This document shows positions 40,513-43,748 of a DNA stretch of 64,000 nt, one piece after another. The DNA is from Candidatus Poriferisocius sp. (lineage in GTDB: Bacteria > Actinomycetota > Acidimicrobiia > Acidimicrobiales > Bin134): assembly GCA_965208545.1 (NCBI GenBank), contig OZ242341.1:2015380-2079379 (forward strand), read 5' to 3'. The notes beneath the pieces are model-generated. The model was not told the DNA's origin and ran no database searches. It worked only from the letters and a program-made list of their open reading frames with translations. The position numbers were made by a program, and so were the translations under genes. Each line of letters begins with the position of its first letter. Position 1 is the first letter of the stretch.

Positions 40513-41775
40513 TTGAGCATGGCCATATCGCTGGACGATCTCACCGCTGACACCTCCTTCACCCAACACGTCAAGGGCCAGGTGACGTTCTTGCCAGAGC
40601 CCGAGCGAGCCGACCGGTGGACGCCGATGATCTCAGTGGACGACCACATCGTGGAGCCCCCCGGGGCCTTTGCCGACCGGTTCCCGGCCAAATACGCCGA
40701 TGACGCCCCCCGGGTGGCCACCCTCGACGACGGATCGGAGACGTGGCTGTATGCCGGGCACTCGCTGCCCAACGTGGGGTTCAACGCCGTGGTGGGCCGG
40801 CCAGTGAGCGAGTACAGCTTCGAGCCAACCCGCTTCGAGGACATGCGCCAGGGCTCATGGGACATCGACGCCCGGATTTCCGACATGGACCTCAACGGGG
40901 TCTACGCCTCGCTGTGCTTCCCGTCGTTTCTGCCCGGCTTCTGCGGACAGCGGTTCCAACAGCTGACCGACGACCCCGAACTGGCCCTGGCCGCGGTTCG
41001 GGCCTGGAACGACTGGAACATCGAGGAATGGTCCGGGGCCTATCCCGATCGCATGATCCCGTGCCAGATCACCTACTTCCTCGACCCCGAGGTGGGCGCA
41101 GCCGAGGTGTACCGCAACGCTGAGCGGGGCTACCGGGCCATCAGCTTCTCCGAGGCCCCCCATTCTCTGGGGTTCCCCTCGCTGCACTCCGGCCACTGGG
41201 ATCCGATCATGGCCGCCTGCGAGGAGACTGAGACGGTGGTGTGCCTGCATGTCGGCTCCTCGGGCACCTCGCCGGCCACCTCGCCCGATGCCCCCTCCGA
41301 CACCGTGGGGGTGCTGTTCTTCGGCTACGCCATGTTCGCCGCGGTGGATTGGCTGTACTCCAAGATCCCAGTGCGCTTTCCCAACATCAAGATCGCCCTC
41401 AGCGAGGGGGGCCTTGGCTGGGTGGCCGGGCTGTTGGACCGCCTGGAGCACGTCCGCAAGTACGACTCCATGTACGGCACCTGGAATGATGTGGAGCTCT
41501 CACCCGCCGACACCCTGCGCCGCAACTTCTGGTTCTGCGCCATCGACGACCCCTCGGCTTTCGACCAGCGCCACTACATGGGCCTGGAGAACCTGATGGT
41601 GGAGTCGGACTACCCCCACGCCGACTCCACCTGGCCCAACACCCAGGAACTGCTCCGCCAACAGCTCAGCGGCATCCCCGCCGACGAGGTGGCCCGCATC
41701 TGCTGGGCCAACGCCAGCGAGCTCTTCCGCCACCCCGTCCCCGACTCGGTTGTCAACGACCCCAACAGCTTTTAG
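40513..41775 (+). CDS. amidohydrolase-2 family protein (ACMSD-like metal-dependent hydrolase/decarboxylase)
   Basis: ISVDDHIVEP...ESDYPHADSTWP. Confidence 0.8.
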   Translation: MSMAISLDDLTADTSFTQHVKGQVTFLPEPERADRWTPMISVDDHIVEPPGAFADRFPAKYADDAPRVATLDDGSETWLYAGHSLPNVGFNAVVGRPVSEYSFEPTRFEDMRQGSWDIDARISDMDLNGVYASLCFPSFLPGFCGQRFQQLTDDPELALAAVRAWNDWNIEEWSGAYPDRMIPCQITYFLDPEVGAAEVYRNAERGYRAISFSEAPHSLGFPSLHSGHWDPIMAACEETETVVCLHVGSSGTSPATSPDAPSDTVGVLFFGYAMFAAVDWLYSKIPVRFPNIKIALSEGGLGWVAGLLDRLEHVRKYDSMYGTWNDVELSPADTLRRNFWFCAIDDPSAFDQRHYMGLENLMVESDYPHADSTWPNTQELLRQQLSGIPADEVARICWANASELFRHPVPDSVVNDPNSF

Positions 41776-41848
41776 GGCCCGCTTAGCCGCCGCCGGTTGC
41801 TGCTGGAATGTTGTTGTCGTGCGCAAGTGGATTGGTTAGGATGCTCCC

Positions 41849-41923
41849 GGTGGAGCTGGGGGGGATCGAACCCCCGCGGTCAGTTGTCAAATCTGGCACC
41901 GCCCCGACCAACCGGGCAGCCCC
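41849..41923 (-). ncRNA. tRNA-like element with Ala-type acceptor (G3:U70) and a canonical T arm but non-canonical D and anticodon arms. It may be a pseudo-tRNA or a tmRNA-TLD-like RNA.
   Basis: Minus strand reads GGGGCUGCCCGGUUGGUCGGGGCGGUGCCAGAUUUGACAACUGACCGCGGGGGUUCGAUCCCCCCCAGCUCCACC. Acceptor GGGGCUG/CAGCUCC, T arm GGGGG-UUCGAUC-CCCCC. I could fold no standard anticodon arm. Confidence 0.4.
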
Positions 41924-41950
41924 TTGAGGAGAGAGCATCGCTTTCTCCTA

Positions 41951-41989
41951 GGGCCGCACCGGGTCTGTGCACGAGACCCGGTGCGGCCC
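41951..41989. other. perfect 16-bp inverted repeat with a 7-nt loop
   Basis: GGGCCGCACCGGGTCT-GTGCACG-AGACCCGGTGCGGCCC. On the minus strand it would form the 5' end of the tRNA-like transcript. On the plus strand it could act as a terminator (followed by TTAGTATTGT). Confidence 0.6.
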
Positions 41990-41994
41990 TTAGT

Positions 41995-42023
41995 ATTGTA
42001 CGGACAAACACTGCATTACTCAA
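41995..42023 (-). promoter_or_regulatory. candidate sigma-70-type promoter TTGAGT-17 nt-TACAAT driving the tRNA-like element
   Basis: Minus strand reads atgaatgTTGAGTaatgcagtgtttgtccgTACAATactaaGGG. The predicted +1 is at the first G of the 16-bp hairpin. Confidence 0.45.
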
Positions 42024-42095
42024 CATTCATTCTTATAGATTGAAATATATTGATATGGAGACTCTGCCCTGAGCGACCTATCCGCTGATCCTGAG

Positions 42096-43748
42096 GTGGC
42101 TGCCGCGTATGTGGCGGCGGGGTGGTGGGGGCACGACACGCCCACCGACCTGATTCGGCGCAACGCGGCCGAGCGGCCTGATGACACTGCGTATGTCACG
42201 TGGAGTCGGCCGACCGGAGGGACAGGAGACAATCTGGGCAGCATCGATCGGACAACGTGGGCGGGCTATGACCGGTTGTCGGATCGGGTGGCGGCGGCGC
42301 TGTTGGCGGCGGGGCTGGATCGGGGCGACCGGGCGGCGGTGATCTTGCCCGATAGCGCCGCGGTCCACGCGGCGTTCACCGGGGCCGACAAGGCCGGAGT
42401 GGTGGTCATGGGGATCGGACACCGGGCCGGGCCGGCCGAAATCGCCCACCTGGTTGAGAAGTCCGGGGCCCGGGCTGTCATCACCGGGACCGCCCATAGA
42501 GGGCGTCCGGCCGGGGAATCGGTAACTGAGTTACGTCAAGGCCTGCCCGCCCTCGCCCACCACATCGCCATCGACGGCCTCGGCCAGGATGCCGCCCTGT
42601 TCTTGAATGGCGAGCCCGCCCCTGGGCCAGAAACGGTGCTCAAGTTTGGCGAAGCCGTGGAGGGCCGTCGTCTGGGGGCCTCGGAGCTGTGCTTGCTTAA
42701 CTCCACATCGGGCACCACCGGCCTGCCCAAGTGCGTGATGCAGACCCACAACCGCTGGTTCTACTTCCACCAGAAGGCAGTGGAGTACAGCGGGCTGGGG
42801 ACCGACGAGGTTTTCTGCGTGCCGGTGCCCGCGCCGTTCGGCTTCGGGCTGTGGACCGCCCACTACACCCCCACCATTTTGGGCGTGCCCACCGTGGTGA
42901 TGGCCGAATTCGACGCCGCGGCGCTGTTGCGGCTCATCGAGGCCGAGAGGGTGACCGTGCTGTGCGCCGTCACCACCCAGTTCATCATGATGCTCAACTC
43001 CCCTGCCTTCGACGACCACGACCTGTCGTCGCTGCGGCTGATGTTCACCGGGGGCGAGGCCATCCCCTATCAGCGGGCCGCCGAGTTCGAGGACCGCACC
43101 GGCTGCACGGTGCTGAACTTCTACGGCTCCAATGAGACCGGGATGCTGAGCGGGACCCGCTTGAGCGACCCGCGGTCGGCCCGGCTGCGCACTGGGGGCA
43201 AGTGCGAGCCCGAGATGGACTGCGCGTTGTACGACCCCGACGACGGGCAGCGGCTTCCCGAGCTGCGGGGCCGGGGCCAGCCCGCCTGCCGGGGGCCGGC
43301 CACCGCCTTGGGCTACTACGACGACGACAAGGCCAACACCGAGCTGATGACCGACGACGGCCGGATGCTGATGGGCGACATCGTGGAGATCGACGACAAT
43401 GGCTATTTGCGGGTGGTGGGCCGCACGTCGGACTTCATCATCCGAGGGGGTAAGAACATCAGCGCCCCCGCGGTGGAAGACGAGGTGATGACCCACGCGG
43501 CGGTGGCCATGGTGGCCGCGGTGGCCGCGCCCGACCCGGTGTTCGGCGAGCGGGTGGCCGCCTACGTGGAGCTGGTTCCCGGCACCAGCCTGGACTTGGA
43601 CGGGCTCCGGGAACATCTGGGCGAGCGAGGCGTGTCCCGGGAGTGGTGGCCCGAGCACCTCTTCGTGGTCGATGCCCTGCCCCGGTCATCGGGGGGCAAG
43701 GTGGCCAAGGGCCAGCTCAAGAAGGACGCCGCCGTCCGGCTGGCCTAG
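42096..43748 (+). CDS. acyl-CoA synthetase / AMP-binding enzyme
   Basis: LNSTSGTTGLPKCV (AMP-binding motif I), GEAIP, YGSNETG, and a C-terminal SSGGKVAKG. Confidence 0.85.
   Translation: MAAAYVAAGWWGHDTPTDLIRRNAAERPDDTAYVTWSRPTGGTGDNLGSIDRTTWAGYDRLSDRVAAALLAAGLDRGDRAAVILPDSAAVHAAFTGADKAGVVVMGIGHRAGPAEIAHLVEKSGARAVITGTAHRGRPAGESVTELRQGLPALAHHIAIDGLGQDAALFLNGEPAPGPETVLKFGEAVEGRRLGASELCLLNSTSGTTGLPKCVMQTHNRWFYFHQKAVEYSGLGTDEVFCVPVPAPFGFGLWTAHYTPTILGVPTVVMAEFDAAALLRLIEAERVTVLCAVTTQFIMMLNSPAFDDHDLSSLRLMFTGGEAIPYQRAAEFEDRTGCTVLNFYGSNETGMLSGTRLSDPRSARLRTGGKCEPEMDCALYDPDDGQRLPELRGRGQPACRGPATALGYYDDDKANTELMTDDGRMLMGDIVEIDDNGYLRVVGRTSDFIIRGGKNISAPAVEDEVMTHAAVAMVAAVAAPDPVFGERVAAYVELVPGTSLDLDGLREHLGERGVSREWWPEHLFVVDALPRSSGGKVAKGQLKKDAAVRLA

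Follow-up and report, generated by a model that had tools for sequence, protein, structure and literature searches.

A G3:U70 wobble pair is the classic determinant for charging of any acceptor helix by alanyl-tRNA synthetase (AlaRS), which requires little beyond this pair and the discriminator base A73. To our knowledge, the bacterial RNA families known to use this signal are restricted to tRNA-Ala, transfer-messenger RNA (tmRNA) and a few allo-tRNAs. YrlA, a bacterial Y RNA, bears a tRNA-like module closed on a Ro-binding stem, and its ends do not form an acceptor stem. Allo-tRNAs, which are active in decoding in E. coli, combine an 8/4 or 9/3 acceptor/T branch (12 bp) with normal anticodon arms and a long variable arm (PMC5389517, Mukai 2017); some of them reside in polycistrons and may be regulatory (PMC5389517), and tRNA-Other of Bacillus cereus is a single-copy pseudo-tRNA that is charged by lysyl-tRNA synthetase (PMC3399842). 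Here, we describe a small tRNA-like RNA with a G3:U70 acceptor stem that is encoded on the minus strand of a 64-kb stretch of a Candidatus Poriferisocius genome (genome G000, contig C1). This whole stretch is referred to as the window, and positions given without a contig label are counted along it.

On comparative sequence evidence, window positions 41776-42060 (minus strand) constitute a stand-alone small-RNA gene, the family of which is confined to part of Candidatus Poriferisocius (Acidimicrobiia). The RNA family is previously undescribed and multi-copy in this genus of sponge-associated bacteria; no description of it was found in the literature searched, where allo-tRNAs with G3:U70 are the nearest published analogues. 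An earlier note, made from the sequence of the window, had proposed a stand-alone, promoter-driven, non-canonical tRNA-like RNA with alanine identity at this place and had argued against an att-site fragment, and paralogues, orthologues in 21 other species and compensatory changes in every helix bear this proposal out. Genome G000 carries four units of the family at three loci (the window, C1:828733-828804 and a tandem pair at C1:2566620-2566772), from which we built a covariance model, R1. All genes of the family are laid out alike: the promoter comes first, then two 5' hairpins and the tRNA-like unit, and a C-rich trailer comes last. The features at the window locus, in the direction of transcription, are the following.

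42041..42052, minus strand: upstream AT-rich motif CAATATATTTCA, with the family consensus (T)TTCAGTATATTTCA, found upstream of all subtypes
42018..42023, minus strand: -35 hexamer TTGAGT (promoter scan); TTGAGA, TTGATA, TTGGCA or TTGGGA at equal spacing in orthologues
41995..42000, minus strand: -10 hexamer TACAAT (promoter scan); TACAAT, TAAAAT or TATAAT in orthologues
41950..41990, minus strand: leader hairpin 1, 17 bp with a 7-nt loop, arms at 41990-41974 and 41966-41950 (folding, covariation)
41927..41949, minus strand: leader hairpin 2, AGGAGA.AGC/GCU.UCUCCU with loop GAU (folding, covariation)
41924..41926, minus strand: linker CAA, joining hairpin 2 to G1 (linker length 3-7 nt across all copies)
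41849..41923, minus strand: tRNA-like unit of 75 nt (sequence; 90.1 bits with the family model R1, 40.1 bits with the tmRNA model)
41923-41917 with 41858-41852, minus strand: acceptor stem GGGGCUG/CAGCUCC, with G3:U70 at 41921:41854 (sequence)
41916-41903, minus strand: D-like mini-hairpin CCCG-GUUGGU-CGGG, abutting the acceptor stem (sequence)
41902-41876, minus strand: central arm, with loop UUUGACA at 41891-41885 (sequence)
41892-41884, minus strand: central loop plus its two flanking unpaired A's, AUUUGACAA (sequence)
41875-41859, minus strand: T arm GGGGG-UUCGAUC-CCCCC (sequence)
41851-41849, minus strand: A73, C74 and C75, with the CC encoded in the genome (sequence)
41776..41848, minus strand: C-rich, G-poor conserved trailer, with CAUCCUA at 41843-41837 and CGACAACAACAUUCC at 41819-41805
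41783..41938, minus strand: 51-codon open reading frame (ORF) overlapping the RNA, judged non-coding
41776..42095, no strand assigned: whole cassette, the 320-bp spacer from the amidohydrolase gene to the acyl-CoA synthetase gene (empty-site comparison)

The minus-strand sequence from 41923 to 41849 reads as the earlier note had quoted it, with the acceptor stem, G3:U70, A73 followed by CC, the T arm and the abutting D-like hairpin all present; that note had also suggested looking for covariation in relatives, and there the architecture recurs 52 times and covaries. Across these 52 units (41 distinct sequences), on which all pairing statistics for the unit rest, the comparison strongly supports the predicted cloverleaf-like fold, with pairing in 99.1% of cells, compared with 88.7% in column shuffles and at most 63% with slid partners. 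Compensatory changes on both sides affect 10 of 22 pairs and are spread over all five helices, and the G:U pairs fit the minus strand only. Base pairs G1-C72, G2-C71, G3:U70 and C5-G68 as well as A73 are invariant, while the remaining acceptor pairs vary (4:69 as GC/CG/AU/UA, 6:67 as UA/AU and 7:66 as AU/GC/UA). As the wobble is kept in 41/41 distinct sequences amid covarying neighbors, this pattern points to selection on G3:U70 itself.

Units of the family are 71-75 nt long, with an acceptor/T branch of 7/5 in all 41 distinct sequences, a 5-bp T stem, a UUCRANN T loop, and a 4-bp D-like hairpin with a loop of 4-6 nt in which GG is always kept. The central arm comprises about 9 bp, arranged as 5 bp, a bulge or internal loop and another 2-3 bp, and is capped by CUUGACA in 28/41 sequences, with UUUGACA, GUUGACA, CUUAGCA, CUUCGCA and CUUAACA as variants. 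The 3' tail reads ACC (28 sequences), ACU (7), ACA (4) or AUC (2). Two nucleotides that had originally been assigned to a 2-nt variable region turned out to be paired and to covary: 22:48 is C-G in 20 and G-C in 20 sequences, and the pairs in the window are G22-C48 and C23-G47. Thus, the central arm abuts the T stem and the four helices meet without any unpaired nucleotide. The unit has the 7-bp acceptor stem, the discriminator base and the 5-bp T stem with a UUCRANY loop of canonical tRNAs, but not connectors 8, 9 and 26, the variable region, the 5-bp anticodon stem or a purine at position 37 (here C). Two further candidates were considered and rejected. An alternative rod pairing nt 10-17 with nt 40-47, initially offered as a second fold, lacks comparative support (71.5% of cells pair, versus 70.4% in shuffles), and the TTGACA of the central loop is not followed by a -10 hexamer 16-18 nt onward, as judged by eye, which argues against its being a -35 box.

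In the genus sample of 37 genomes, R1 gave strong matches (53-100 bits) in 22, genome G000 included, with 1-6 units each, and these make up the total of 52 units; of the other 15, one has a type 2 unit (below) only. Inside genome G000, the paralogues are only 72-77% identical. Over 24 other families of the order, R1 found nothing above the level of real tRNAs, and those of its 31-41-bit matches there that were checked with ARAGORN are tRNA-Met, tRNA-Lys and tRNA-Ala genes. A search of about 400 genomes of the class (177 genera) with R1 and a second model, R2, yielded one further unit, the orphan L112 (74 bits with R2), the remaining weak matches being real tRNAs. A pattern scan of a named genome collection hit only Acidimicrobiia/Acidimicrobiales metagenome-assembled genomes (MAGs), several of which are named Candidatus Poriferisocius. 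The orphan unit (L112:1501-1571, minus strand) lies in genome G376 of another family of the class, reads GGGGAUG...CAUCUCCACU with G3:U70, and has a long hairpin upstream; it is missing from 30 relatives of this genome, and horizontal transfer or a mis-binned contig is suggested.

Apart from these type 1 units, 13 congeners carry a 70-nt type 2 unit, which is single in most, double in two (G018 and G027) and missing from genome G000. Type 2 (L092-L106 and L037; for example L093:301-370, plus strand) conforms to GGGGCUG-GCAUGGUGC-ACGGA[CNGC-CUCCAAA-GNNG]AY-UCCGU-GGGGGUUCGAGUCCCCC-CAGCUCCACC. It has G3:U70, the promoter-hairpin-hairpin layout and the same acceptor and T arms as type 1, together with a 3-bp D-like hairpin and a 5+4-bp central arm. 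The CUCCAAA loop that caps this arm is identical to the anticodon loop of tRNA-Trp and contains CCUCC, which resembles an anti-Shine-Dalgarno sequence; a variant (L095) and the orphan L112 are built on the same plan. Two peculiarities were noted among the type 1 genes. In genome G007, four complete genes lie within 1.4 kb (L036/L062, G007:C1:2897191-2898588) as two pairs about 280 bp apart, an array that represents local tandem amplification and in which one copy has a T-loop deletion. In genome G014, a long-read MAG, the T stem of the orthologue of the window copy (L080:301-388, plus strand) contains a run of about 20 C's in its 3' strand (GGGGGTTCGATCCCCCCCCCCCCCCCCCCCCAGCTCC), possibly through homopolymer expansion or as an artefact of assembly.

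The promoter assigned at the outset, TTGAGT-17-TACAAT at 42023-41995, is the sole sigma-70-like site that the promoter scan reported in 41500-42400 (matches at 9/12; 0.2 sites in shuffles). Moreover, a promoter stands at a fixed distance from the 5' hairpin in all copies, in agreement with the initial description of the RNA as promoter-equipped; other groups have TATGCT as their -10 hexamer, at equal distance from hairpin 1. In the window, the -10 hexamer lies 4-5 nt upstream of hairpin 1, with the predicted transcription start at about 41990-41989. The AT-rich motif further upstream marks the left limit of similarity among the paralogous copies; in type 2, as in groups B and C, this motif and the -35 region overlap. 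The intergenic gap was correctly measured as 320 bp, but its supposed AT-richness is limited to the promoter stretch, about 42000-42060.

Every gene starts with a hairpin 1 of 13-17 bp and a hairpin 2 of 8-10 bp. Hairpin 1 of the window had been recognized before, as 16 bp at 41989-41951; its extent is 41990-41950, 17 bp with a closing A-U pair. In a plain MAFFT alignment of 39 genes, the leader helices pair in 84.4% of cells, compared with at most 48% with slid partners, and 19 of 25 pairs show compensatory changes (11 of the 15 counted in hairpin 1, 8 of 10 in hairpin 2). Distant members keep the leader stems with their sequence replaced, hairpin 2 then being UAACAGA/UCUGUUA or GAGAUC/GAUCUC. 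We also considered whether hairpin 1 is a generic repeat or terminator, which we reject as its palindrome, apart from a single chance match within a recF-like ORF, is confined in the genome to the three RNA loci. A DNA operator is unlikely, given that hairpin 1 contains U-G wobbles on the RNA (minus) strand and that the arm sequences differ between subtypes of one genome.

Conservation runs about 45 nt beyond the 3' end of the unit, and the primary transcript is probably longer than the roughly 140 nt first estimated. Two trailer elements are common to different paralogue groups: CAYCCUA occupies +5 to +12, and a block rich in C and A but poor in G extends from +30 to +45. The trailer is a probable 3' processing or termination region. 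No consistent pairing partner of CAYCCUA was found in the leader by eye. On the opposite strand, this motif (window 41837-41843) reads TAGGAT, TAGGGT or TATAGT across all copies and resembles a -10 hexamer directed towards the unit; an antisense promoter at this position is possible, and the promoter scan reported no plus-strand promoter.

Comparison with relatives suggests how the gene came to its present place. The flanking ORFs encode an amidohydrolase (40513-41775, plus strand) and an acyl-CoA synthetase (42096-43748, plus strand). In five RNA-less congeners (L122, L124, L125, L126 and L127), the spacer between these genes spans 13-130 bp, compared with 320 bp in the window, and the synthetase keeps its ATG and is longer at the N terminus by about 10-15 codons; the window has lost the ATG, while the homologous sequence can still be recognized there. 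Empty genomes that are distant from each other have a conserved spacer sequence (cgttcgagcgATG), and therefore the filled state is derived: two operon genes were separated by a cassette of about 290 bp that entered on the strand opposite to theirs, which makes this a clean example of the gain of a small-RNA gene as a cassette. Flank identity to genome G000 is 94% and 86% in the empty genome G028, and 92-94% and 79-83% in RNA-bearing genomes. As the flanks of G028 are thus at least as close, gain or loss has occurred between close relatives; the family is accessory and missing from whole genomes of such relatives. For the synthetase of the window, the start must be either GTG 42096 or a CTG, the latter with a GGAGA at the edge of the cassette.

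At the thrS locus (L003, G000:C1:2565203-2568365), the tandem pair lies between thrS and a 164-aa ORF plus pgsA-like gene, in divergent arrangement. In seven RNA-less genomes (L130-L137), thrS and the 164-aa ORF are co-oriented and about 2 kb apart; from this comparison, the locus has been rearranged, with the RNA gene at the junction. At the cassette ends, we found no convincing inverted repeats or clear target duplication, and no integrase, transposase or recombinase was seen. The neighbors differ from locus to locus (amidohydrolase/acyl-CoA synthetase; thiC, with a TPP riboswitch, and pgi; thrS/pgsA-like operon), and a functional link to them is rejected on this ground. The sequence upstream of the second copy is conserved because the TPP riboswitch upstream of thiC lies there, back to back with this copy (L002:1352-1462, minus strand, at about 828.5 kb of G000:C1).

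Standard annotation with ARAGORN and Rfam overlooks the RNA family entirely. Both programs had been suggested as checks and gave no call at the element. ARAGORN called only a tRNA-Pro in the window and none of the tRNA-like units of the family. Rfam 15 at the gathering threshold matched neither the window element nor the other copies, at whose loci the only matches are the neighboring TPP riboswitch and an ALIL pseudoknot, and the element is missing from the match list of the tRNA model RF00005 even at E <= 10. Relaxed Rfam searches of the window returned mascRNA at 22 bits and a local match to the tmRNA 3' end at 10.4 bits (standard model) or 18.8 bits (permuted model). When the full tmRNA model RF00023 was run over the genome, the unit scored 40.1 bits (E = 1.9e-14), against a curated cut-off of 47, and the other subtypes scored 14-39 bits, below the same cut-off. 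In line with the likeness to tmRNA pointed out earlier, RF00023 is the best-scoring Rfam model, at 32-40 bits, for the window unit and for the other subtypes. The mascRNA-menRNA model RF01684 gave 20.8-33.4 bits across units, below its cut-off of 42.5.

The genuine ssrA gene (C1:2440083-2440471; 64.4 bits with RF00023) adjoins smpB and is the single tmRNA that ARAGORN calls in the genome, with tag GNDRELLAA. Within G000:C1:2439578-2440471, smpB comes first and ssrA follows 80 bp further on; in four congeners, one tRNA-like subgroup (L079 type) lies about 10 kb from smpB. Four other ARAGORN calls of 83-97 nt (Gly-acc, Gln-ctg, Pro-ggg and Ser-tga), found at G000:C1:1113441-1113537, 643509-643599, 2914563-2914654 and 3265352-3265434, do not show the features of a normal tRNA and resemble spurious calls in GC-rich DNA.

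We favor the reading that the RNA is an alanine-charged, RNase P-processed, non-decoding tRNA mimic of the tmRNA tRNA-like-domain type, to which we assign a probability of roughly 0.6. The transcript would start with the two-hairpin leader and continue through the tRNA-like domain into the C-rich trailer. RNase P, which recognizes an acceptor/T stack, would cut 5' of G1 and release the two-hairpin leader (predicted site 5' of 41923, inferred from the tRNA-like geometry). The 3' end would then be trimmed and completed to CCA, and the single cellular AlaRS would alanylate the RNA via G3:U70 and A73, as it does with tRNA-Ala and tmRNA. Cleavage at G1, CCA completion and alanylation are proposed because RNase P reads the acceptor/T stack and AlaRS reads G3:U70 and A73, and an encounter with AlaRS is likely meant because an unchanged G3:U70 amid varying pairs would be hard to explain otherwise. 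The RNA probably does not decode codons, as nt 8, 9 and 26 and the variable region are missing, position 37 is C, and the central arm exceeds an anticodon arm by 3-4 bp. Candidate roles are those of a template-independent ribosome/SmpB partner, a donor for a transferase, or a regulator or decoy.

Several observations weigh against this reading. Alanine charging by itself does not account for the trailer or for the conserved leader hairpins and central loop. Gene counts give one alaS and one smpB per genome, no AlaRS or SmpB paralogue that could be a dedicated partner was found, and FemAB and aminoacyl-phosphatidylglycerol synthase, the two best-known Ala-tRNA-dependent transferase families, are missing from the genus. 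In addition, close relatives dispense with the family, the nature of which may be partly selfish and cassette-like, and a pattern scan of metagenome contigs and a looser one of viral contigs gave 0 matches each. Finally, the alignment underlying the pair counts of the units (99.1%) was fitted to the model, which favors structure; the controls with slid partners speak for a small bias.

The leader takes center stage in a competing account, in which the tRNA-like unit is a cis-acting RNase P signal that defines the leader 3' end, and the leader of about 65 nt is the functional small RNA, in analogy to the mascRNA element that matures MALAT1. The leader hairpins covary and stand 3-7 nt from G1 in all genes, 5'-terminal and 3'-proximal hairpins would make such a leader stable, and the mascRNA-menRNA model matches at a sub-threshold 20-33 bits. 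We nevertheless consider such a processing module unlikely, if the best of the competitors, as G3:U70 and A73 are invariant though dispensable for RNase P, the central loop is conserved, two tRNA-like units share a single leader at the thrS locus, and distant members have swapped the leader sequence wholesale, keeping only the stems. Less probable again is a tmRNA paralogue reduced to its tRNA-like domain, which would be bound by SmpB and EF-Tu and act in tag-less rescue or tune trans-translation by competition. Reduced tmRNAs without an mRNA-like part exist in some mitochondria, tmRNA is the model closest to the unit, 27/28 nt of the T arm and 3' end agree with ssrA, and, as in tmRNA, no variable nucleotides separate the T stem from the helix that follows the D region. 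However, at 71-75 nt the RNA has no mRNA-like domain, resume codon or pseudoknot, the closed D hairpin and the conserved capping loop are foreign to tmRNA, each genome has one smpB, which adjoins the true ssrA, and close relatives manage without the family.

The central loop invites a more far-reaching proposal, which we regard as improbable, namely that the family represents a new class of alanine-charged mimics with anticodon-like loops, which act on the ribosome or as decoys and have spread as a cassette of about 290 bp among sponge symbionts. On the ribosome, alanine might be inserted at UCA/UGG codons or added without a template; as decoys, the RNAs might present mimics of tRNA-Ser and tRNA-Trp loops to tRNA-targeting enzymes or toxins, and even jointly these two versions deserve little credence. 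We further hold it very improbable that the cassette is selfish or a relic, that is, mobile or duplicated att-like DNA of tRNA/tmRNA origin without a function for the cell. It was inserted as a discrete piece with the empty site intact in close relatives, one copy sits at the thrS rearrangement junction, and one genome has four copies within 1.4 kb; on the other hand, the paralogues are 72-77% identical and yet keep all helices by compensation, which indicates long-term selection on the fold, both acceptor halves are present, and terminal inverted repeats, a clear target duplication, an integrase or a transposase were not found. Equally far down, and a shade lower, we place an unusual decoding tRNA that would use its 7-nt central loop as an anticodon loop and insert alanine at sense codons in regulated mistranslation. 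The 7-nt loops do have U at the U33 position, the variation is focused on positions 35-36 (CUUGACA, CUUAGCA, CUUCGCA, CUUAACA; CUCCAAA in type 2), most type 1 units would have the anticodon UGA and a few UAG, UCG or UAA, with CCA for the 70-nt type 2, and alanine insertion by non-canonical G3:U70 allo-tRNAs has been demonstrated experimentally (PMC5389517). This account is opposed by C37 in type 1, the missing connectors 8, 9 and 26 and variable region, the central arm of about 9 bp plus bulge as compared with 5 bp plus position 26 in tRNA, the absence of a call by ARAGORN or the Rfam tRNA model, and a normal tRNA-Ser(UGA) within a full tRNA set in the genome. We give almost no credence to the view that the 51-codon ORF (41938-41783) makes a small protein and that the RNA fold is coincidental. 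Its frame is open for 51 codons in this genome, and its ATG lies 7 nt after AGGAGA, so that AGGAGAAAGCGAUG had been taken for a Shine-Dalgarno sequence plus start codon; instead, it is the 5' strand and loop of the conserved, covarying hairpin 2 (41949-41927), with the ATG in the loop. Orthologues have CTG, TCG or GTG in place of the ATG, the 1- and 2-nt length differences between units of 72, 73, 74 and 75 nt shift the frame so that stops appear, and no Pfam family matches. With its start not conserved and its frame broken in relatives, the coding reading is rejected, and protein-level conservation of this ORF, which the earlier note had named as evidence against the RNA, does not hold.

If the RNA is indeed an alanine-charged, non-decoding tRNA mimic, it raises the question of what the cell does with a compact, message-free alanyl-RNA; possible uses are tag-less ribosome rescue, control of trans-translation, non-ribosomal donation of alanine, or service as a decoy. 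The family would also be a candidate RNA marker and regulator for abundant, uncultured sponge symbionts.

Comparison with described systems places the family among several kinds of tRNA-like RNA. Like tRNA-Other and YrlA, its members are chromosomal, non-decoding tRNA-like small RNAs, and those two have regulatory or unknown roles; unlike the family, they have no G3:U70 and no leader hairpins, and they give no match at the family loci. With mascRNA and MEN-beta (RF01684), the family shares a compact fold of tRNA type, in which the D and anticodon arms are reduced and which RNase P excises from a longer transcript, as predicted here, and the RNA upstream of the cut may, as a possible further likeness to mascRNA, be a stable product. 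However, mascRNA and MEN-beta are vertebrate nuclear RNAs without alanine identity that are not aminoacylated, and the family matches stay below 42.5 bits. Allo-tRNAs resemble the family as non-canonical bacterial tRNA-like genes with the alanine identity pair and non-alanine loops (PMC5389517), but the family RNA has a 7/5 branch, no variable arm and an over-long central arm.

Closer still are the RNAs with full alanine identity in this very genome. The acceptor stem is identical to that of the three tRNA-Ala genes, including G3:U70, A73 and G2-C71, the T loop is canonical, and GG is kept in the D-type loop. In contrast to tRNA-Ala, the family RNA is without nt 8, 9 and 26, the variable region and an alanine anticodon, its D loop has only 4-6 nt, its central arm is a bulged helix of about 9 bp, and it is missed by ARAGORN and RF00005. 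Compared with tmRNA, the family RNA lacks the mRNA-like domain, tag frame and pseudoknots (71-75 nt versus 389 nt), has a closed 4-bp D hairpin, a capped central helix and a two-hairpin leader, is multi-copy and located away from smpB, and scores below the 47-bit cut-off. What it has in common with the tRNA-like domain of tmRNA (RF00023) is the GGGGCUG/CAGCUCC acceptor stem with G3:U70, A73 and CC, the T arm GGGGG-UUCGAU(C/U)-CCCCC, with 27 of 28 nt equal to the 3' end of the genome's own ssrA, and a helix after the D region that meets the T stem without variable nucleotides. By these sequence features, the family is closest to the tRNA-like domain of tmRNA among the systems compared.

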